Shown in pieces: positions 5,529 through 53,723 of a stretch of 64,000 bases of DNA. Origin of the DNA: Tubiluchus corallicola. Taxonomy: Eukaryota; Animalia; Priapulida. The stretch is taken from the NCBI GenBank assembly GCA_030141605.1, contig JAQGDQ010000708.1:45108-109107 (forward strand). Direction: 5' to 3'. The notes below the pieces were generated by a model that saw nothing but the letters and a program-made list of their open reading frames with translations, did no database searches and had not been told where the DNA came from. The first letter of the stretch is position 1; every line of letters begins with the position of its first letter. The translations under genes were made by a program, and so were the position numbers.

Positions 5529-5819
5529 CTATCGTTGCCTTAAAAGGATGTGAATATTACAGTGTATTACATATAACTGTGGTAACACACGTATACGGCT
5601 AAACTACTACTTGTTATCTACATGAGACTGGAACTACTGTACATATTAGCAGCCTGTATATGCAATACCAAAAGACGTTGGCGAATGGGCAACCACATAA
5701 TTGTATTTATAAAGTAGTACTGTAGATTTAATTTTTACTGCAAGCTGTTGCCACAAAGGAATGTGAACAAGATAAAGAAGGAATTGATTTGCGAACAAAA
5801 AAGCTCTTTACCTCAGCTC

Positions 5820-6213
5820 TAGAAAAGAAAATGATTATTATTTAAAATATTTTCACTAATTGGTAAAATGTCGCAGACTCCAGGGTGCACCGCTCACTAA
5901 CCAAAAAACGTATTTTTAATCTTATTGACAAGATACAGTAATTTTAAATTTTATTTAGTTAGTGATTTGTGCGCTACGAATGCTCTGATTATTTTTTCAA
6001 ACTTTACAAAATGTTATCTAAACTTGTTTCAAATGACCTGTCGTCAAAATCGCTGCGCGCAATGGTCATCGCGGGAGTTTAAATTTACATGTTTTACATA
6101 GTGTTACTGCCGATTGAAGTCCTGTATGCAAAAAGGCTGTACGTAAGTGATATAAAATTTCAAAACGAATTTTTTAAAGCTTTATGTTTATAAAGGATTT
6201 TCTTGTGCTTTAA
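5820..6213 (+). mobile_element. Family B Kolobok-like non-autonomous transposon, partial copy
   Basis: Shares e.g. GCTACGAATGCTCTGATTATTTTTTCAAACTTTAC with copies at 38.0, 39.2, 49.4 and 53.1 kb; ends TTCTTGTGCT-TTAA. Confidence 0.8.
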
Positions 6214-7259: not shown

Positions 7260-7600
7260 CATTATTGAAATGACGTTGGAGTCAAAAAGGGGAGTGGAGC
7301 CCCGAAGACGGACCAGTGCAGCATGCTCATTGACTCGGGCAGCTCCTGCAGCCAACCTGGTGCCAAACGTATCGCTCCGCTTTCCTTTGTACTACACCAG
7401 GGGGGAAGAGAGGGGGTTCCTGTTGTCTGGGCAACTCAGGATCTCCATACACCTTGCCCAGGCGTGCGCCCTGGAGACGTTCAAGGATCGGACTGCTCAG
7501 TCACAATCGAAGCTGCAGCTCCATCAATGTGATCAATAACTGACTCTCTTGCCGCACACTCCATTGTCTTCCGAGACGGAAGGATGCCAACAACAATAAC
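7260..7600 (+). mobile_element. Probable retroposon with RTE/BovB-like 3' end and short (CAA)n tail
   Basis: GC-richer segment ending CACACTCCATTGTCTTCCGAGACGGAAGGATGCCAACAACAA, which resembles RTE-clade 3' termini as I recall them. The 5' boundary is uncertain. Confidence 0.45.
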
Positions 7601-23777: not shown

Positions 23778-24000
23778 TTGATTTCGCACGTTTTAGTGGC
23801 TAGATTTCGCATGTTTTAGTCGCTAAAGCACATTTTAGCCGCTAGATTTCGCATGTTTTAGTCACTAGATTTCACACGTTTTAGTCGCTAAAGCACATTT
23901 TAGTCGCTAGATTTCGCACGTTTTAGTCGCTAGTGCACGTTTTAGTCGCTAGATTTCACATGTTTTAGTCGCTAGATTTCACACGTTTTATTCGCTAGAT
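23778..24000. repeat. ~20-23-bp minisatellite (tagatttcgcacgttttagtcgc)
   Basis: About 10 variable tandem units. Confidence 0.85.
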
Positions 24001-24593
24001 GACTTCAGCAAATTTCGGGGCTTGGTTACAGCAGCGTTTGCGTTTGGTTGAAACATTTCACTATGCAGCATTGTTTACAAATTCAACGTCACAGAAACGA
24101 CGCGGTATCCAAGGAAACCGTTGCTATGCACAATTGTTTAGCCGCCGAAGGTTCACGAGCAAAAGCGAACAAAATGTTTGGGGAATGCAATTTCGAGACG
24201 AATTTCATTAAGCAGGAAGCCATGAAATTCAATAAAATCAGCGTCAAATATTAAGTCACCTCTTTTAATTAGAGAAAAGTAGTTTTTATGTTAAATTTGA
24301 TACTTAAATAGGTAGCGTGACGTGTGATGATAGAACACGTGACGTAGTTACCTCAAACTAATCGCAGGCCTACATCGTAATTGTGACTTTTAAGATTAGT
24401 TCTGTGTATCAGTAGCACTAGCACTACAAGTCACGTTGCAAACAAAGGTTTATAAATAAACAAACAAAAACTGTTTACGCCATTGTATACATATATATTG
24501 TAACAAAAATTATTTCATTTAGCTCTCAATCGGGGTACCTCCATCAGAACAAAGGTGTTGACTGAGAGAAATATTTGGCACATGTGACTATAT

Positions 24594-24845: not shown

Positions 24846-25330
24846 CTATTGCCTGTTCTTTGCTATTCGCCTGCTATCGGTTGTACTACGTTTACCCAAG
24901 AATTCCATGGCCCGTTTACTGTCGTCGTTACGCTTGCCGAGAAATTCCATGGCTCGTTTGTCGAGATATTTTGTTGCACGTTTTCCGAGAAATTCCATTG
25001 CACGTTTTCCGAGAAATTCCATGGCTCGTTTGACGTCGTCACGTTTTCCGAGAAATTCCATGGCGCGCTTTTCCGTGTTCCGTTTCCCTAAAAATTCCAT
25101 TGCACGTTTTTCGTCGGCGATGATGCCCTCTTGTGGTGGGAAGTTGAAAGATCGTTTTCCGCCTAGAAACTCCATGGCTCTCTTCTCAGGGAGAAGGTAT
25201 TCCGTATCGTCCGACGTCCGCTTACCGAGAAATTCCATGGCTCTTTTATTGTCGTCCCTTTTACCAAGGAATTCCATGGCACGCTTCTCTTCTGCTAACT
25301 CATTACCTGACACAGGCAAGAAGATTTCGT
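24846..25330 (-). CDS. Neuropeptide precursor, peptide-encoding exon: 8x AMEFLamide + 1x AMEFLGamide (EFLamide/EFLGamide, TRH-type-like)
   Basis: Nine KR-AMEFLG(G)-KR units with acidic spacers: dibasic convertase sites plus a Gly amide donor. Codons vary synonymously between copies. Acceptor tatttttattctaatttcAG (AG at 25332-25331), phase 1; TAG at 24848-24846. Confidence 0.95.
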
Positions 25331-26404
25331 CTGAAATTAGAATAAAAATACATCAGAAGTAGAATCAGGTAGACAATATGGTGAAAAACATGACGAAATT
25401 GCAGTACATGACGTCATTCCCAAATTTCCTACGTCATTCTGAAAACAAGTGACGTAAACTATGATTAAAGCAAAAGTCAAGTTTCTCGGGAAGCTAATTT
25501 TAATATTTGTGAAAAATGTTAGAAAGTTTCAGCAGTGAAATTGTGATAAGCATCTCGTGTAATTAATCATTTCAATTTAAAATTGCGATCACTTCACGCT
25601 TGGGCACGGTCATTTTGGTGAAAAATGGCGTCATCTGGTTTCCGTGCGATATAAACAGTTGTTCCGCCAGGTGCTTCAGAATGTTTGTTTAACTTACAGA
25701 GCGATTCTATAAACTAAGTAACCAGCCCGGCACCTACTACGTGCTGACATGTTTACATGCGCGTCTAAAAGTCAACAAAAATCTGCAAATTAATTATTTA
25801 CACAATTAATGTCAATTACTAACACATTTTAAGGTATAATCTGTAGATTAAAGCAATGTAACCAGTTTAAATTTGATCATAATTGACCGAATGACTAATT
25901 TCTAGATAAACACAGTTAAACACAACATTAGAATAACAGAACTTCTAAGCAAACTGTAGAAATGTCTCAACGCGTACCTTCATCACAGCTTGCCTTCACA
26001 GCATTCACGCTGCCCAGCAGGCACCAGCTTACGTCATTTTTTTTTAAATAGGCAGCCATCAAAGTTCGTTTGGCGGGAGATAAAAATATTTAAATTTCTT
26101 TTACATTTTTAAGCAAAGCATTCTATGTGCATATTTTATTGTGATTTCAATATTTTTAATTGTACATTTTAAAAAAGACAATAAATGTTGTTCGTTTTGG
26201 TTAAGCAATAGTCTATGAAGCATGTTGCCTTTTTAATTCTACACACCTTGTTTCATTGAGTCACAGTCTCTACGCGATGAATCACAAATTGTCCACTAAT
26301 TAGTTTGTCTCGGGGTTGAAAAATGGCCAGTCACTGACCCATCAGCTCGCAACAGACCTAAGGTAGATTAATGATGAAGCATCACTATGCAGCATGCAGG
26401 TAAG

Positions 26405-27990
26405 GCGTCATCATCCACTCAACAGCTCTGAAAGTCTGAGTCTGAATGTTCCAGCAGATTCATTGACAAACTTCCGTCGTCCTCCATTCAACAGCTCTGA
26501 AAGTCTGAATCTGAATGTTCCAGCAGATTCATTGATAAACACCCGTTATTCTCCATTCAACAGCTCTGAAAATCTGAGTCTGAATGTTCCAGCAGATTCA
26601 TTGATAAACATCCGTTATTCTCCATTCAACAGCTCTGAAAATCTGAGTCTGAATGTTCCAGCAGATTCATTGATAAACATCCGTCATTCTCCACTCAACA
26701 GCTCTGAAAGTCTGAGTCTGAATCTTCCAGCAGATTCATTGATAAACATCCGTCATCCTCCACTCAACAGCTCTGAAAGTCTGAGTCTGAATGTTCCAGC
26801 AGATTCATTGATAAACTTCCGTCATTCTCCATTCAACAGCTCTGAAAGTCTGAGTCTGAATGTTCCAGCAGATTCATTGACAAACTTCCGTCGTTCTCCA
26901 TTCAACAGCTCTGAAAGTCTGAGTCTGAATGTTCCAGCAGATTCATTGATAAACATCCGTCATTCTCCACTCAACAGCTCTGAAAATCTGAGTCTGAATG
27001 TTCCAGCAGATTCAGTGATAAACATCCGTCATTCTCCATTCAACAGCTCTGAAAGTCTGAGTCTGAATGTTCCAGCAGATTCATGATAAACATCCGTCAT
27101 TCTCCATTCAACAGCTCTGAAAATCTGAGTCTGAATGTTCCAGCAGATTCAGTGATAAACATCCGTCATTCTCCATTCAACAGCTCTGAAAGTCTGAGTC
27201 TGAATGTTCCAGCAGATTCATTGATAAACATCCGTCATTCTCCACTCAACAGCTCTGAAAATCTGAGTCTGAATGTTCCAGCAGATTCAGTGATAAACAT
27301 CCGTCATTCTCCACTCAACAGCTCTGAAAATCTGAGTCTGAATGTTCCAGCAGATTCAGTGATAAACTTCCGTCATTCTCCACTCAACAGCTCTGAAAAT
27401 CTGAGTCTGAATGTTCCAGCAGATTCAGTGATAAACATCTGTCATTCTCCACTCAACAGCTCTGAAAGTCTGAGTCTGAATGTTCCAGCAGATTCAGTGA
27501 TAAACTTCCGTCATTCTCCATTCAACAGCTCTGAAAATCTGAGTCTGAATGTTCCAGCAGATTCATTGATAAACATCCGTCATTCTCCACTCAACAGCTC
27601 TGAAAATCTGAGTCTGAATGTTCCAGCAGATTCATTGATGAACATCCGTCATTCTCCACTCAACAGCTCTGAAAATCTGAGTCTGAATGTTCCAGCAGAT
27701 TCAGTGATAAACACCCGTCATTCTCCACTCAACAGCTCTGAAAGTCTGAGTCTGAATGTTCCAGCAGATTCAGTGATAAACTTCCGTCATTCTCCATTCA
27801 ACAGCTCTGAAAATCTGAGTCTGAATGTTCCAGCAGATTCATTGATAAACATCCGTCATTCTCCACTCAACAGCTCTGAAAGTCTGAGCCTGAATGTTCC
27901 AGCAGATTCATTGATAAACATCCGTCATTCTCCACTCAACAGCTCTGAAAGTCTGAGTCTGAATGTTCCAGCAGATTCATAGATAAACTT
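26405..27990. repeat. 69-bp minisatellite, ~23 copies, intronic
   Basis: Unit cagcagattcattgataaacatccgtcattctccactcaacagctctgaaaatctgagtctgaatgttc; explains the 230-aa and 299-aa ORFs. Confidence 0.95.
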
Positions 27991-29759
27991 CCCATCTGCC
28001 TCCCCCTCCCCGCTTATTGATTCGTTTCGAATATTATAATCTTATAATGTAATTAGACTCTTCTTTAGTTATAGAATTAGAATTTATTGCTAGATTTACC
28101 ATGAGCAAACAAGTTTACGATGACAATTTACACAGAAAACATTAAATTAACACAAATTTTCACACAGAAAACATTAATATCTAATTATAATTTTCATTGA
28201 GGTTACTTGTAAGCCCTAGGACAACACCGGGACGAAAATATTGTGTTGATGCTGCCCAGATAAATGGAATCTTTGTGTTCATATTGTTACGAAGACAGAT
28301 TTTGACCAACACCCTAATGTTAGTAATGGGTATGGTTGAGAAGCCCAGTAATGCAAATGTACCTGTATAAAACAGAATGCATGCCGTAATTTTACGATTC
28401 CAACCTGGCCTTTCTGTCTGTAAAGGTGAATGCTGTAGGTTTGCTAATTTTTATACAAAAATCTGTTCACATGTCATGGAGCTACTGATTGTGCATTAAA
28501 GTTTATTTTACATTTATATTCTTTTTGCTTTTTTCGTCTGCTGTAAAGTATTTCATAACTTGTATGCCGCTCTATACATCCTGAGACGGATCCGCGCTGG
28601 AACCCGGAGCCATTACACTAGTGTCAGAAGTGGGATCCGAAATTGCCGCTTGAAATGGACCCGAATCCGTTACAATATTATTCTTACTTTATATGGGTAT
28701 TATATACATCAACATGTGATGTTACCCTTTGTTTGTAAATGTGTAAATATTTGTTTTCTTTATAAATCTCTAATTGTACTTTTGTGTGTTGTGTAAACAA
28801 TTTTTACTAATATTTCTATACGTGTTCACTTACCAAATAAATGTATAAAAAATATGTCAAACGTCTTTAATTTTCCTTTTCGTTCCATTCCTTCTCCACG
28901 TTTCCTTCTCCTCTTTCTCTCCTTCTTCTTCTTTTCCTCTGACCGGTCAACTGAGACCGACCAATAACAACACAAAGATAATAAAAGCAGGGTAGAGGAT
29001 ATTCTATCTCAGCACCTGCTTCGTAATGACGACCAGCATGCAGTTCAATGCATTACACATTTTGATGCTTTCTGTACAGCTGTATGCTGTGTCAGCGAAT
29101 CTGCACCGTCCGTCTTCGTAAAAACAATATGATTAAATTACCACCATCATCGTCATCATTACCATCATCACTACTGTTGTCACGGCTGTCATCACCATAA
29201 TCGTCACTCCGTAATTGTTGTCATTGTCATCTGTCGTTGCCAATGCTTCAAGTTTGTAAATGTAATCCAGTTTCTTTAGCACCTGGTGAAGCCATTAGCG
29301 AAAGAGAAAAAATCTCGGACGTGCTCCAAATCTCATCTATCAATTCCTGCAAAGAGGCGTCGTTTAACTCAGTTTCCTTCACTTCCTCTAACCGGAAGTA
29401 TTCCATGCTCTATTTCCCATTAACTCTACTGGACAAACTGTTAGCTCACACTCAGTCTCCTTCATTAAAACATTTTTTACATGGTGTCGACTATAAATTT
29501 CTCCGGCTTCCGGAAACTGCACCGGAAATAAAATGAGTGCACGACGGAAACTTTAGCACTGCTTGGCTTCTGAATTCTATAGCTAATAAAAGTAATTTTC
29601 CCCCCCAGTAAACGAATGAATATTTCCCCCAGTAAACTCCTACTGAAATTTTATAACATAAAAACATCAAATGTGAAAATCCCGAGATGTAAGAATCCTG
29701 AGACCAGTTTAAATAAACTTGCATTAAATTAAATTAATTTGAATTAACTATAAACAATA

Positions 29760-30320
29760 AAACTATTGAATTAACAACCAATTTTAGTTTAAAGCAAAAT
29801 CGGGCCCAAAAACTCTAGGTGTAAAATCAATCTACTCTTTAAAATATTAAAAGAAAACATGCTATTTATTCAAAAATGACTTACGTGAAGGAATTATTAC
29901 CACACAAACACAATTTCACGTTCGCGCCATTAGTTCTTTGCTGTTACAAGTATTTTGCCATTCGCTAGTTAGACGGGCACTAGCGCCTGCATTTTGGAAA
30001 CCCATTACACAAAAACAGGTGCTGTACCTCTCAGTTCAGATGTGTTAGTTTCTCATGAACTACACACGTTCGACAGCTCATGCGTGAGCAAAGCGGTAAA
30101 TTTGAAATTTGAATTTTCATCTTACAACTTGCCTAATTTTAGCACAACACACTGAATCTCTTACAGTAGCACTGAACTTCAATTTTCGCTTTCCCAAAAC
30201 ACTCGTGGAATATTTTTGTTGTCGAAAATTATGTTAATTTGTGAAGTCAATAGTTGGCTTGCCCGCCGTTAATTAAGCTTTTAATCTATTATTTAATTAT
30301 CAGAAACGCTTTTGCAGTAT
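29760..30320 (+). mobile_element. Dispersed repeat family F (unclassified)
   Basis: Colinear similarity with ~54700-55200 (AATCTACTCTTTAAAATATT, CATTCGCTAGTTAGACGGG, CAGTTCAGATGTGTTAGTTT). Confidence 0.7.
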
Positions 30321-30855
30321 AATTTTTCTTTTTTATATTTCTTTCTTTAGTAACAAATTTATATAAGTTTTGGTTTTCCCTTTTCAGTAGCAACAATTGT
30401 TTCACCAGTTTGGCTGGTTGTATTTCAATGTTTTTATTCGTTTCAGTTTCAGAAAGAATAAAAAATTTCTAAAATCCGAAAACTTACTTTTTAAAAACAA
30501 TTTTATTCGGTTCTAATACAATCTTTAATCATTTTTTGTTATCAAATGGCTAGAACCAGTGGCTATAGATGTATTTTTGAAAAGTATGTAGGTTGCTGCC
30601 ATATTTCTCAAATAGGGCTATAATATCTCAAGCTAGAAAGTGAAACAGTTTAAATATTGTATTTCTTGCAAGTGGTACTAATATTAACTAGTTCAGAACG
30701 CGAATCGTTGGGTTACTTGTACACGCACGCACGTACGAACGTGTTCATGTACGCACGCATGCCTGCACACGTGCGTTTTTCATTGCAAACTTACATAACT
30801 ATGTAAACGTGGATATAGCTCGTACGCCATGTTACGCATGATGTGCCTTCGTCAC

Positions 30856-31600
30856 TTCTTTTCTTCTTCTTCTTCTTCAAAATTTCATTCCACCCTTTGT
30901 AGGCACCGAGGTATTAAAATTTATCAGAGTATTCCACTCACTTCTATCTGCAGCTAACAGTGTAAGTTCTTCTACTCCTAAAGATAGATTTGGTTGAAGT
31001 TGTTGAGCATCTTTATTTATCTTACCTATCTAAGTTGCTTTTTGGTTTGCCAGGTGGTTTCTTGCAAGGTTTTATGGCTTTCTTTAAGGCAAATCTTACT
31101 GGTGCTTCATTCGGTAATCTTAGAAGATGTCCTAGCCATCTTAATCTTCGGATCTTGACTTTTGAACTCCAAGAAATTTCTTTTGTTCTGGTGTATAAAT
31201 CTTCATTTTTGATTATGATTATGAGAATGTATGGCCATCTTATCTTTAAAACTTTCCTAAAGAGACTTCTATGAAATGTGACAATCTGCTTTTCTTGAGT
31301 AATTGTTAAACCCCAAGTTTCACTGTTGTACATAAATATGCTGGTAACTTAAGCGTTAAATAATCGAAGTCTTATGTTAAAACTTAAGTTCTTGCTAGTT
31401 AATGCAAAATTGTGTTGAAGAAAAGCAAGCACTGCTTGTTGCTTTCTGCTTTTAATGTCATCTTCGGTGTTTAGAAAAGTCCCCATGAATTTGCACTTTT
31501 ACCAAGACCGATTACCGTCTCTTACAATAATATATTCTTCTGTTTTTGACTGATTTACTTGAATATTTCTTTTCTCTAGTTTTTGGAAAATCCCTTTTTA
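30856..31600 (-). mobile_element. Degenerate 5'-truncated RTE-clade LINE (ORF2 C-terminal part) with (GAA)n tail
   Basis: The translation YNSETW..L...FHR.L.RK.L.I.W...NEDLY...I..RRLRWLGH.LR is the typical post-RT region of RTE-clade LINEs. Stops lie upstream, and there is a (TTC)n run at ~30856-30878. Confidence 0.85.
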
Positions 31601-32254
31601 TTGTGTTAGTTTGAGAATTTCATCTTTCTTTTAGATTTTTGAATTAGAAGCCCATTTACGGTTGCCATGGATCCATTTTTTCTTTCGTAAAACTTTAGAT
31701 TAACAGAAGAAGAACTCTATTGTGACGTCACAATAGAAAATTGACTGAGACATTCTATGTTTACGTATGAAACTGACGTCACGCCAAAATACTTATTCGC
31801 AGAATTACCACGCAAACGAATTACCAAAAAAAACTAAAAAATTTACGGTGCTTTATATGGAATACAGATGCTGTCATCTGGTGAACGTTTATAGAACGAA
31901 CTCCTATTAATGTCGCCCAATGATTCGCCGCTAAATTTTTAATTGTTATGCCCCACTCAGCTGTCGTTGAGTTTAGAGAATCGATGTTACTGACGAGTGT
32001 CGCCCATTAAACTGATACATGTCTTAGTTGATGGCTCCAGGCGAGTTATAGATGCAATTTTAAACAGCACTGCTGCGCTTTGGAAATTCAAAACTATACT
32101 ATCCTTAACTAAAGTTTATCAAAATTACGACTACTAGTGAAATGCCAATGAAATAATAATGTTGGCCTTATAATATTCTTCTACTTTATTTTAGCTTTTC
32201 AGAAAAAATTACTGTTATTCTATTTTAAGCAATAATAATAACAAATAATAATGA

Positions 32255-32591
32255 TAGTGATAGTGACAGTGAACGTGAACGTGAACGTGAACGTGAACGT
32301 GAACGTGAACGTGAACGTGAACGTGAACGTGAACGTGAACGTGAACGTGAACGTGAACGTGAACGTGAACGTGAACGTGAACGTGACCGTGACCGTGACC
32401 GTGACCGTGACCGTGACCGTGACCGTGACCGTGACCGTGACCGTGACCGTGACCGTGACCGTGACCGTGACAGTGACAGTGACAGTGACAGTGACAGTGA
32501 CAGTGACAGTGACAGTGACAGTGACAGTGACAGTGACAATAACAATAACAAAGGCAATAACAATAACAATAACAATAACAATAACAATAGC

Positions 32592-32642
<51 letters not shown>

Positions 32643-32692
32643 AACAACAGCAGCAGCAACAACAACAAAAACAATAATAATAATAATAATAA
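32255..32692. repeat. Compound microsatellite (GTGAAC)n-(GTGACC)n-(GTGACA)n-(ATAACA)n-(ACA)n
   Basis: Direct observation. Confidence 0.95.
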
Positions 32693-32696
32693 CATT

Positions 32697-32995
32697 AGTT
32701 TATGAAGCGAGAATTCTACAACACAAAAGTATGAAGGAACGCGAAATGATTACACTAAAATCTGGAAAACGTTTAAGTGTATCTGAAAATACAAGTATAC
32801 AAGAGAATGTGCAAGCGGTGTCCGTATGAATCCGTCTGCTCTGGTCTCAACGGCCTGCTTCGCCTTATATAGTGCGCCCGAGAAGTTTCTAGAAGTTCCT
32901 TTCCAGAACATTCTACACGGTAAGACGATTATTTTAACGGAACATTCTACAATGTTCTATGTAATTCTAATAGATGCCAACGATCTCCACAACAC
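32697..32995 (-). mobile_element. LTR-like repeat, copy 1 (partial)
   Basis: Similar to ~46843-47147. On the minus strand it starts TGTGTTGTGGAGAT and contains CTATATAAGG. Confidence 0.55.
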
Positions 32996-33169
32996 ATAAT
33001 AAGGTTATAGTTATAGATGCCGAAAGGAACTATGCGAGTCAAGCAAATGGATATTATAAATTTGAGCGGATGGAGCTGATTCGCTACTTCATTTCACGTT
33101 ATAAAACAACGTTACAGAAACGACAGGAATTACATTTTCTATATTTTTATAGAAAAAACTTGCCAGAGT

Positions 33170-33400
33170 CCTCTATGTTCCGTGCTAGTACTACGGAATA
33201 GGTGCTGAGATGCTAAACGCACATGTCCGTCAGCCAGTTGAACCGACGAGGCCGTTCCATAGCGACGGTTTTACACCTGGTTTTCAACGTCACTATGCAA
33301 TGGCTTCGCATGGACGAGACCACCACAATGTAGAGGGGTGGGTGGAAAATAAATGGCATTTCGTCCGTGTAATGACATCATGCAATGTAATGGTGGAAGT
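33170..33400 (+). mobile_element. Dispersed repeat family E copy
   Basis: Similarity to 13110-13340. Confidence 0.65.
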
Positions 33401-33669
33401 TGGCTGAGCTAATTTAACTGCAAGTGACTAGTATACGTGCCGTAAATAGCAATGTGTCGTCATCAGCATACATTACATGATTTGAATATGTGTTTAACGA
33501 CAGCTTATTAACAACTGATGCGAGGACGCTAGTCTATGGGGACGGATATTACTGTGCCTAGAGCATCATGCAATTATTGTATCTATCTCACCTTGCAATG
33601 TGGAAAGAATATATCATTGGAGGCTCCTTGAAGTTAGAAAGCGTAAAGTAAAAGTAGACAAACACGTAC

Positions 33670-34127
<458 letters not shown>

Positions 34128-34239
34128 CAATAATGGGGTTAGAAAAATGCTATGAACTTAATAATAAAGTTAAAGGTGATCAAGAAAAAAAGGAAAAAAC
34201 TTAAAGTAATAATGCATTATTTTCATAAATTCTACTTAC

Positions 34240-34339
34240 TAGCTAGTGGTGACTGGGCTGCTGACGTGAATGTCACGTGACTCAAACAGACAAATAAGCA
34301 AGCCGATAGCAAAATGAAATATAACCTTCGAAGCAACAT
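34240..34339 (-). CDS. Neuropeptide precursor, signal-peptide exon (MLLRRLYFILLSACLFVCLSHVTFTSAAQSPLA)
   Basis: Acceptor cgttttttttttcAG (exon starts 34352), ATG in AAACAATG context, basic n-region, hydrophobic core and small-residue c-region. Canonical donor A|GTAAGT at 34240/34239. Its 100 coding nt leave phase 1, matching the acceptor at 25330 (A|AC = Asn) and giving a 194-aa ORF. Confidence 0.8.
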
Positions 34340-34759
34340 TGTTTCTCTAATTCTGAAAAAAAAACGAAAAGATGTTAAGAATGTTAAAAAAATGGTAAGA
34401 ATACAAGAAACGTGACCCAAACACTTAAACTGCTGAAGTAACTATTTTCTGGCTTCAAAATCTTCGAAACTGGTTAATGTACTGAAGCCGAAACTGAGTT
34501 TGTGGCGCATGAGTTAATTATCTAAGGAGCCCTTGCCAACGTTTTTAATTTTATAATGTGACCACCATTATGACGTCATCATTACTTACGGGCCGCACCG
34601 AATCGTCCGACGAACTTGTGGTAATAACGTAGCTATAAAAAGTTGACCCACCGCCTCTACGGACTACTACCCATATTAGCGAAGGTTATACTGACTAAAA
34701 CAAAGCTATGGCTTTAAACTTTGTAGTTCAATTTAAACTAATTTAGGGAATTTAAACTT

Positions 34760-38016: not shown

Positions 38017-38690
38017 TTAAAGCACAAGAAGCTTTTCCACTTACATAAAACTCTAAAGATTCGTCTTGAAATTTTGTACCACTTACATACTGCCTTTTTG
38101 CATACAGGACTTGTGTCGGCAGTAGCGCTGCATAAAACATGTAAATTTAAACTCCCGCGATCACCGTTAGACGCAGCCATTTTTAACTGAAACAAGTTTA
38201 GATAACATTGTGTAAAGTTTGAAAAAATAATCAGAGCATTCGTAGCACACACGTCACTAACAGAGTAAAATTTAAAATTACTCTATCTTGTCAATAAAAT
38301 TTAAAATACGTTTTTGGTTAATGAGTGGCGCACCCTGGAGGGTGAGTCATCGACATTTTACCAATTGGTGAAAACACTTTAAATAATTAATAATTTTCTT
38401 TTCTAGTTACTTAAGTCTTTCAAGCAGGTAAGTGAAATACTAATTATAACTTTGTATGGAAAGTCTTTTGGGACATAGTTAAACATTTTTTACTTCCCCC
38501 GATTTACATTGTGCATGTATGACGTCATGTAATGGCGCGGTCGGAAGAGCCCTGCGGAAATTTAAAACGAAAACAAAGAAAAAATCATTTGATCGAGAAA
38601 ACGATATACATATAAAATTATCATAAAGTGATATAATTTTTAAGGCGATTTTTCTGAAACCTACTTCAGGTACCCCTTTTCTCGTTGTAC
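38017..38690 (-). mobile_element. Family B Kolobok-like element, inverted copy
   Basis: Begins TTAA-AGCACAAGAA; reverse complement of the 39.2-39.95 kb copy. Confidence 0.8.
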
Positions 38691-39018: not shown

Positions 39019-40094
39019 CTGGGCGCGGTTTCACAAAGCCGTCACGAAGTTAGTGACGTTGTTGTTATCAGTTTAGTGACAATTTTAACGAGCTCATTAA
39101 CGTTTGCGTTTCAGAAAGCGGGCACTATTTTAAGGATGTCACTATTTATTGACAAGAAAAGTGACGAGCTAAGAGCAGTCTTTAAATAACAAGAAAGGGG
39201 TGCCTGAAGTAGGTTTCAGGAAAATCGTCTTAAAATTTATTTTACAACAATTTTATGCGTACATCGTACTCGCGTTGAAAGGATTTTTTGTTTGTTTTCA
39301 TTTTAAATCTTCCACAACGCTGTTCCGACCGCGTCATTACATTACGTCATATACGCACAACGTAAATCAGGGAAAGAAAAGGCAATGTTAAATTATGCCC
39401 CAAAAAACTTTTCATGCAAATCTATATTACTTAGCATTTCACTTACCTGCTGGAAAGACTTGTGTAACTAGACGTTAAGTTCAAAATATTGAAAACTACA
39501 TCAGCATTTTTCAAATCAAAGCTTAAATGAAATAATATATGCCTCGGATAATTAAATTTTGTAACTAGAAATAATAATTTAAAATGTTTGTGCCAATTGG
39601 TAAAATGTCGCTGACTCACCCTCCAGGGTGCGCCACTCCTTAACCAAAAATGTATTTTTAATCTTATTGACAAGATACAGTAATTTAAAATTTTACTTAG
39701 TTAGTAACATGTGTGCTACGAATGCTCTGATTATTTTTTCAAACTTTACACAATGTTGTCTAAGCTTGTTTCAAATGACCTATCGTCAAAATGGCTGCGT
39801 CTAATTGTCATCGCGGGAGCTTAAATTTACATGTTTTATACAGCGTAACTGCCGACACAAGCTCTGTATGCAAAAAGGCAGTAGGTAAGTGATAAGTGAT
39901 AAGTTTAAGACTAATTTTCTAAGCTTTGTGTAGCTGGAGGGTTTTCTTGTGCTTTAAGACGATCAATAATTAGTGACGTTCTAACGACGTTGTTTGTGAA
40001 ATAATAGTGAAAACGTCACTAAGGCATCACTAAATGGCTTTAGTGACAGCTTTAGTGACGGCGTCCAGTATTGGCTTTGTCAAATCGGCCACTG
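39019..40094. mobile_element. PIF/Harbinger-like MITE interrupted by a family B insertion
   Basis: Imperfect 19-bp TIRs GGCGCGGTTTCACAAAGCC / GGCTTTGTCAAATCGGCCA with CTG on both sides (39019-21, 40092-94). Both halves are rich in TTAGTGAC motifs. Confidence 0.65.
39182..39957 (+). mobile_element. Family B Kolobok-like element, full-length, nested
   Basis: TTAA at both ends (39182-85, 39954-57). Confidence 0.85.
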
Positions 40095-49108: not shown

Positions 49109-49412
49109 CGATGTTATACCTATACTGGCACCACATCACTAGCATTTTATACTGGCATAGCCTACCTACACACGCCTGCAGTTAAACTATTTATGCTGCA
49201 ATTTTAATTACAACATCCGGGATGTTTTGCCGAGTTGCAGGAAGATTTCAAGGATTCTCAAGGCAAATATGACTGTACTTGCTGTGAAATTTTCGAAGCC
49301 ATTTGTGATGATAATTGCCTTTCAACGGCATTTGAATATTTCAATTTTGATTATGTGTTCACACTACATGCCGTACACACGCAAATACAGCACAGCGAGT
49401 TTATTACAGTAA

Positions 49413-50097
49413 AGCACAAGAAAACCCTCAACTTACAAAAAGCCTAAAAAATTGCCTTGAAATTTTATATCACTTACTTACTGCCTTTTTGCATATTAGA
49501 CTTGCATCGGCAGTAACACTGTATAAAACATGTAAATTTAAACTCCCGCAATGACCGTTAGACGCAGCCATTTTGACGACAGGTCATTTGAAACAAGTTG
49601 AAATAACATTGTGTGAAGTTTGAAAAAATAATCAGAGCATTCGTAGCACACAAGTCACTAACTAAGTAAAATTTAAAATTACTGTGTCTTGTCAGTAAGA
49701 TTAAAAATAGGTTTTTGGTTAGTGAGTGGTGTACCCTAGAGGGTAAGTCAGCGACATTTTACCAATTGGTGAAAGTATTTTAAACAACTAATATTCTTCT
49801 TTTTTAGTTACATAAGTCTTTCCAGCAGGTAAGCCAAAATCTAAGTAATATAAGTTTGCATGGAAAGTTTTTTGGGTCATAGTTTAACATTGCCTTTTCT
49901 CCCCCTGATTTACGTGGCGTAGTGACGTCATGTAATGGCGCCGTCGGAACAGTATTGCGGGAAATTTAAAATGAAAACAAATAAAAATTCCTTTCAACGC
50001 GAATTCGATATACGCATAGAATTACTATAAAGTAAGATAATATTTTACGGCGATTTTTCTGAAACCTACTTCATGTACCACTTCTCTTGTCCTTTAA
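49413..50097 (-). mobile_element. Family B Kolobok-like element, full-length inverted copy
   Basis: Termini AGCACAAGA...TCTTGTCCT-TTAA (imperfect TIR). Confidence 0.85.
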
Positions 50098-53119: not shown

Positions 53120-53723
53120 TACAGCATTTTTATGCATATATCGCGCTCATGTTAAAAGGAATTTTTGTTTGTTTTCATTTTAAATCTCCCGCAACACTGT
53201 TCAGATGGCGCCATTACATGACGTCACATGCGCAAACGTAAATCGGGGGAAGAAAAGGCAATGTTAAATTATGTCCCAAAAAATCTTTCCATGCAAAGTT
53301 ATATTACTTAGCTTTTCGCTTACCTGCTGGAAAGACCTATGTAACTAGAAATAGTAATTTAAAATGTTTGTGCCAATTGGTAAAATGTTGCTGACTCACC
53401 CTCCAGGGTGCGCCACTCACTAACCAAAAACGTATTTTTAATCTTATTGAGAAGATACAGTAATTTTGAATATTACTTAGTTAGTAACATGTGCGCTACG
53501 AATGCTCTGATTATTTTTTCAAACTTTACGCAATGCTATCAAAACTTGTTTCAAATGACCTGTCATGAAAATGGCTGTCTAACGGTCATTGCGGGAGTTT
53601 ACACGTTTTATGCAGCGTTACGGCCGATGCAAGCCCTGCATGCAAAAAGGGCAGTATGTAAGTGTAATAAAATTTCAAGACGAATTTTCTAAGCTTTGTG
53701 TAGCTGGTTTCCTTGGGCTTTAA
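53120..53723 (+). mobile_element. Family B element, 5'-truncated copy
   Basis: Colinear with ~39250-39955; ends GGCT-TTAA. Confidence 0.8.

Follow-up and report, generated by a model that had tools for sequence, protein, structure and literature searches.

Peptides of the fulicin/EFLGamide type have been called orthologues of thyrotropin-releasing hormone (TRH), with the core E-[L/F]-[L/F/V] (PMC8398477). Here, we describe a gene on the minus strand of a 64-kb stretch of animal DNA (the window) that probably encodes a multi-copy precursor of this protostome TRH-type family, with two predicted products, AMEFLamide and AMEFLGamide. In the oyster, according to the same source, the Cragi-fulicin gene (LOC105328755) yields three transcripts, two for MIP and one for fulicin, and the fulicin precursor holds one QGEWVamide in addition to (F/Y)S(E/D)FL peptides, most of the peptides having been seen by mass spectrometry; fulicin is also stated there to carry a D-amino acid residue. 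The window gene resembles the oyster gene in its multi-copy layout, its EFL-amide core and its TRH-type assignment, but differs from it in the peptides themselves and in gene structure, the oyster gene being shared with MIP and fulicin being one of three splice products.

Two molluscan precursors listed in the supplement of PMC6425005 come close to the window gene. The chiton precursor leptochitonRugatus.8852, known from a transcript, contains GFEFLamide, two Gly-extended GFEFMGamides, xYDF[V/I]amides and short acidic spacers. It shares a signal peptide, similar size, acidic spacers and a mixture of small-hydrophobic-EFLamide pentapeptides with Gly-extended copies, whereas GFEFLamide and GFEFMGamide stand in place of AMEFLamide and AMEFLGamide and the xYDF[V/I]amides are additional. 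A squid transcript (idiosepiusNotoides.288058) encodes PMEFLamide and one AMEFLamide. Cephalopod PMEFLamide is filed under PRQFVamide in Sepia (PMC5736919); its precursor has a signal peptide, a spacer and tandem xMEFLamides like ours, but PMEFLamide dominates, no spacers separate the copies, and its own family placement is unsettled. In the annelid FVamide/EFLGamide precursors (Platynereis, Capitella), an EFLG-amide product is shared with the window gene, but every copy is Gly-extended and mostly FSEFLGamide, and the region lies behind an FVamide region, in Platynereis behind its stop codon, so that read-through or alternative splicing is needed (PMC3890597). The TRH-type receptor of Platynereis is described as having FSEFLGamide as its ligand (PMC4772807). 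Two unnamed exons (P0127 and P0186) hold NMEFLGamide beside FSEF[L/I]Gamide.

The closest group in our searches was of mussel type, with AMEFLamide and other xMEFLamides, YAEFLamide or YDEFLamide, and a C-terminal GDW[I/M]G, which parallels the oyster QGEWVamide. Both the Mytilus coruscus protein CAC5401040.1 (P0036), which falls in this cluster, and the mussel locus L001 have AMEFLamide and other xMEFLamides between KR sites, and the last coding exon of L001 is entered in phase 1. They differ in their additional YAEF[L/I]amide or YDEFLamide, in the GDW[I/M]G tail and in an upstream PxFVamide exon: in P0036, PxFVamide peptides precede the xMEFLamide part, and in L001, the tail of a PxFVamide exon lies about 1.4 kb before the xMEFLamide exon. 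The window gene, by comparison, encodes a single type of peptide, with one copy Gly-extended, and lacks a PxFVamide exon. The earlier note on this DNA had taken AMEFLamide for a possibly unannotated variant. This did not hold, as public mussel and squid sequences already encode the predicted peptide; with the squid AMEFLamide and the mixed chiton layout known, neither the peptide nor the mixture with Gly-extended copies is new. A literature search by name and topic found no paper naming AMEFLamide among the matches listed.

Gene model and peptide units

Two coding exons joined in phase 1 give a protein of 194 amino acids in frame (Table 1). The acceptor of exon B is preceded by a pyrimidine tract and CAG, and both exons, the canonical splice signals and the matching phase, all proposed in the earlier note, were found in the sequence, as was its observation that the open reading frame (ORF) track misses the N-terminus. 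The splice junction between the exons is likely, and the precursor gene is likely to be spliced from two coding exons across an intron of about 9 kb.

Table 1. Coordinates of the features of the precursor gene in the window
Feature	Position	Strand	Remarks
Exon A	34240..34352	-	13-nt 5' leader after strong acceptor; ATG at 34339; predicted signal peptide; coding part 34339 to 34240 (100 nt), ending before phase-1 GTAAGT donor
Predicted intron	25331..34239	-	8,909 nt, full of satellites and dispersed repeats; junction inferred
Exon B, coding part	24846..25330	-	phase-1 acceptor at 25330; acidic spacers; eight AMEFLG-KR and one AMEFLGG-KR; TAG stop at 24848-24846
Gly-extended unit (the only one)	25158..25178	-	predicted product AMEFLGamide, annelid EFLGamide-like
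Decayed tenth unit	24960..24983	-	KR-ATKYLD-KR, without amidation Gly
Possible 5'-leader intron	34353..34589	-	237 nt; GTAAGT at 34589, acceptor at 34353; inference only
Nearest candidate polyadenylation signals	23987..24269	-	ATTAAA at 24269, AATAAA at 23992; motif match only

Exon B contains nine KR-flanked units, and the KR of the eight AMEFLG-KR units starts at 25286, 25247, 25109, 25070, 25031, 25007, 24959 and 24917. All nine begin with Ala and have Met at position 2. Nine units had also been counted in the earlier note, but the invariance claimed there was not confirmed, since two products are predicted and one copy is Gly-extended, and the decayed tenth unit had been missed. The latter shares 18 of 24 nt with its neighbouring unit and 17 of 24 nt with the unit majority, and four of its six peptide residues are changed. 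Sites with Gly before a dibasic pair numbered nine in the exon B ORF versus two in the next-best ORF of the window, and at most two were found in each of 60 hexamer-block shuffles (60/60); the units are therefore not due to chance.

The codons of the nine units differ while the peptide is kept, as had been claimed from a few examples. Over the 36 pairs, the proportion of synonymous differences (pS) was 0.91 and that of nonsynonymous differences (pN) was 0. The latter value involves some circularity, as the units were selected by their peptide and the tenth was left out, whereas the near-saturation of synonymous sites does not depend on this choice. All 15 minority alleles were synonymous, although only 22% of the sites are. 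The peptide is thus under selection at the protein level across the nine units. That the locus is a satellite or a dead gene merely resembling a precursor is extremely improbable: 40% of the window is masked as tandem repeat, part of exon B itself is called as a 24-nt tandem repeat and one unit has decayed, but the minority alleles of the intact units are all silent, the reading frame remains open across 160 codons, and other animals have orthologous exons.

On the criteria of hydropathy and the (-3,-1) rule, the product of exon A has a basic n-region and a hydrophobic core at residues 6-17, with a nine-residue hydropathy peak of 2.93. Compatible cleavage sites lie after residues 20, 27, 28 and 30, and cleavage would most likely take place after Ala27 or Ala28. 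When 38.7 kb upstream were scanned for signal exons, three ATG-to-donor stretches passed thresholds which, to the detriment of the model, had been chosen after the candidate had been seen. Exon A was the nearest of the three, with the most hydrophobic core and the sole 6/6 donor; the other two, at 38486 and 47688, were weaker. These two leave some room for a TRH-type exon B that receives its N-terminus from another first exon, or through an extra exon lost from the assembly, rather than from exon A alone. Such an arrangement has a precedent in Pyrrhocoris, in which the EFLamide exon is described as spliced onto the first exons of Prohormone-4 (PMC7294237); moreover, the junction is predicted from sequence and the repeat-rich intron could be mis-assembled. 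We nevertheless give it only a small chance. Besides its rank in the scan, exon A has its basic n-region and a strong acceptor of its own, none of the 77 non-repeat ORFs of at least 62 amino acids in the window matched another gene at the curated Pfam cut-off, and a scan of the intron for internal exons returned a sole in-frame cassette candidate of 8 codons.

For the two-exon model, the strong acceptor 13 bases before the ATG of exon A points to a further non-coding exon, which would agree with the leader intron of Table 1; a possible alternative is that TATAAA at 34555 marks a promoter. The CRE-like motif TGACGTCA occurs 19 times in the window, and its copy at 34578 was therefore not counted as evidence. 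Contigs of run X1 matched exon B with zero differing letters, although this run may be the window's own source sample and is not independent support. X1 behaves as DNA, one of its contigs spanning both borders of exon A without a loose end, and for this reason, the end of an X1 contig at 25332, by the acceptor, was not taken as a sign of splicing. Upstream of exon A, X1 and the window differ by one substitution and one base of a T-run (34412, 34356), and the coding parts are identical. A second run, X2, covered repeats only.

Family assignment

Protein searches with exon B gave 17 matches of similar length, four longer ones and 162 representatives (the best 150 of the 162 were examined), and a profile built from four sequences gave 73 matches. 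In a comparison with EFLGamide, EFLamide, PRQFVamide and TRH precursors, as the earlier note had suggested, 161 fetched proteins were classed by our own motif rules, 20 redundant cluster members and 49 new profile matches being left out. Peptides of the form xMEF[L/I/V]amide were found in 11 of 62 proteins of the fulicin/EFL(G)amide type and in 5 of 27 unclassified ones, and in none of the 64 of Arg type or the eight of PxFVamide type. Gly-extended forms occurred in three fulicin-type proteins, one unclassified protein and no Arg-type protein. The TRH-type core with a Gly donor is present in all nine units of the window gene. On this sequence evidence, the comparison favours the fulicin/EFL(G)amide type over the Arg type and supports the EFLamide/EFLGamide assignment made earlier, fulicin being the molluscan name of the family; we hold it quite probable that the window gene is a multi-copy precursor of the protostome TRH-type family.

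Several points weigh against this conclusion. The motif classes are self-made, and eight of the 11 positives for xMEF[L/I/V]amide come from a single mussel-type lineage and are not independent. An aromatic first residue (Phe, Tyr or Trp), as in fulicin in the narrow sense, in the oyster (F/Y)S(E/D)FL peptides and in Platynereis FSEFLG, is found in none of the nine units, and a tail of the GDW/GEW type is absent from the precursor. In all three related loci that were fetched, as in the window gene, the peptide exon is entered in phase 1, but this match is weak support, phase 1 being common after signal exons. Across six frames of the 64 kb, no F[V/I/L/M]-G-[K/R] cluster was found outside exon B. 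Finally, the F[V/L/I]amides are treated in PMC8557429 as a mixed group, in which unrelated spiralian peptides may have been brought together by their similar ends.

The last point bears on whether the precursor, although real, might belong to the PRQFVamide/LRNFVamide/FLamide pentapeptide group, having converged on EFL and acting on a receptor that is not of TRH type. AMEFLamide is a pentapeptide like AREFVamide and PREFLamide of PRQFVamide precursors (P0044, Deroceras prqfvamide 1), which thus also yield xREF[V/L]amides; cephalopod PMEFLamide is filed in this group; and PRQFVamide-type genes would, from general knowledge, need no PxFVamide exon. Precursors of this type also rank high in the HMMER list (best 150 of 162), most likely due to their shared GKR repeats. 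However, E is preceded by R in 47 of the 49 distinct E-containing peptides of the 64 Arg-type precursors and never by M, and the signature xR[Q/E/D/N]F[V/L]amide is lacking in the window gene, which has Met, not Arg, at position 2. The Gly-extended form likewise has no counterpart among them, and automatic labels are unreliable, as illustrated by the SEFLamide precursor of the amphipod Hyalella azteca (P0040), automatically named 'protein PRQFV-amide'. We therefore regard membership of this group as unlikely.

The earlier note had drawn a parallel to xMEFLamides of molluscan PRQFVamide-type precursors. This is correct as far as the filing of cephalopod PMEFLamide goes, but none of the Arg-type precursors holds such a peptide, and the link is probably a matter of labelling: the cephalopod precursors may be mislabelled like P0040, and PMEFLamide may be the cephalopod TRH-type peptide.

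With regard to the deuterostome TRH signature, a tri- or tetrapeptide with N-terminal Gln (pyroglutamate), no unit is Gln-led, and PF05438 was not matched at E values up to 0.1; neither exon A nor exon B had a curated Pfam match. In the ESM Atlas, generic neuropeptide-precursor clusters were returned below 0.9, with TRH at rank 10 (0.83), which is a lead only. Metagenome scans confirmed 0 of 111 pattern matches with exon B and 3 of 168 with the mussel-type alignment. P0051 was the sole protein of the 161 with both spacer motifs of the window gene, GGKRSF and KRATxY; it has A[V/I]EFLGamide repeats and differs in that every copy is Gly-extended, and it may come from a lineage related to that of the window gene. 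As a whole, the relatives suggest that the window comes from a mollusc or some other lophotrochozoan, although an arthropod is also conceivable, since unnamed APGMEFLamide precursors (P0014-16) resemble APGSEFLamide ones. P0061 carries [N/T]FEFLamide repeats. In Tubulanus polymorphus, one protein (P0006, XP_074644156.1) combines an xREFLamide precursor with a prokineticin domain in a fusion (PF06607, E 2e-10); an FSEFLGamide precursor of this species is listed separately in the supplement of PMC8557429.

The absent PxFVamide/MIP module and the surrounding DNA

In the genes of mussels, oysters, snails and annelids, the EFL-type exon comes after a PxFVamide/MIP exon. Between signal exon and EFL exon, such a region is present in L001, in P0036 and in the Physella model (P0097), where PxFVamide peptides are followed by fulicin-type peptides, and it is lacking here: no exon for PxFVamide or another amidated peptide was found in the 8.9-kb intron. 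We do not file the window gene under the MIP(PxFVamide)/fulicin or FVamide/EFLGamide compound gene, but by its sequence features it fits the wider TRH-type family. The module may be missing through loss or separation, because the lineage never possessed it, or because the assembly has a gap within the repeat-rich intron. That the TRH-type gene has here been split from the module, and stands alone with a single simplified pentapeptide and one Gly-extended copy, is a tentative suggestion which we consider rather doubtful. In a filtered set of squid, chiton and Ennucula sequences, no N-terminus was shared by EFL and PxFVamide precursors, each occurring once; owing to the filtering, this has no bearing on gene separation.

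The DNA around the gene is rich in repeats. High-copy interspersed repeats occupy 25470-26200, shortly before the acceptor of exon B, and there the summed X1 contig depth reaches about 2,300 versus 8-9 on the exons. A dispersed family of 400-700 bp, 80-87% alike and in both orientations, lies at 5819-6213, 38018-38685, 39182-39957, 49410-50090 and 53120-53723; further families were found at 1542-2001/35609-36060 and at 41498-41854/42584-42943/52174-52489. Inside the intron, a stretch of 108 amino acids (31025-31348, minus strand) had no Pfam match, and we take it to resemble the tail of an RTE-type LINE protein. On the plus strand, a stretch of 69 amino acids at 7334-7540 weakly matched the trypsin domain (E 0.00086; 19.6 bits against a cut-off of 20.6); it is probably a broken fragment or due to chance, since the neighbouring frames are closed. 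An Rfam scan of the window gave 0 matches.

Predicted processing and significance of the gene

In the mechanism we propose, a neurosecretory cell would join the two coding exons by splicing, with the signal peptide directing the protein of 194 amino acids into the secretory pathway. By established pathway knowledge, convertases of PC1/3 or PC2 type would cut at KR, carboxypeptidase E would trim the basic residues and PAM would convert the last Gly to an amide, so that eight AMEFL-NH2 and one AMEFLG-NH2 would be released together with the acidic spacers. This logic, already put forward in the earlier note, agrees with the KR-flanked units and their Gly donors. The released peptides would then be expected to activate a TRH-receptor orthologue, a rhodopsin-type G-protein-coupled receptor. 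By analogy, their most likely role would be to modulate growth circuits and the muscles of reproduction or feeding, as described for fulicin in snails, with roles in copulation and egg laying (PMC8398477), and for TRH-1 of C. elegans, with a role in growth (PMC11004728). EFLamide null bugs (Pyrrhocoris) are reported to have no visible defect (PMC7294237), so that the role suggested here is tentative.

The window gene changes no major view. It supplies a gene model that ORF-based annotation would miss, in a family that has no Pfam match here and whose automatic names are unreliable, an amphipod EFLamide precursor being labelled PRQFV-amide. In a mollusc or an annelid, the absence of the PxFVamide/MIP module would count as a minor evolutionary novelty. 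If the stand-alone reading is true, the gene would also provide a natural experiment on what a protostome TRH receptor minimally requires of its ligand, the aromatic first residue being absent, and possibly on a D-isomerisation at Met2 comparable to that of fulicin, whose D-residue is at position 2. The two predicted peptides are cheap synthetic ligands with which it could be asked whether a protostome TRH receptor needs an aromatic first residue or an extra Gly.

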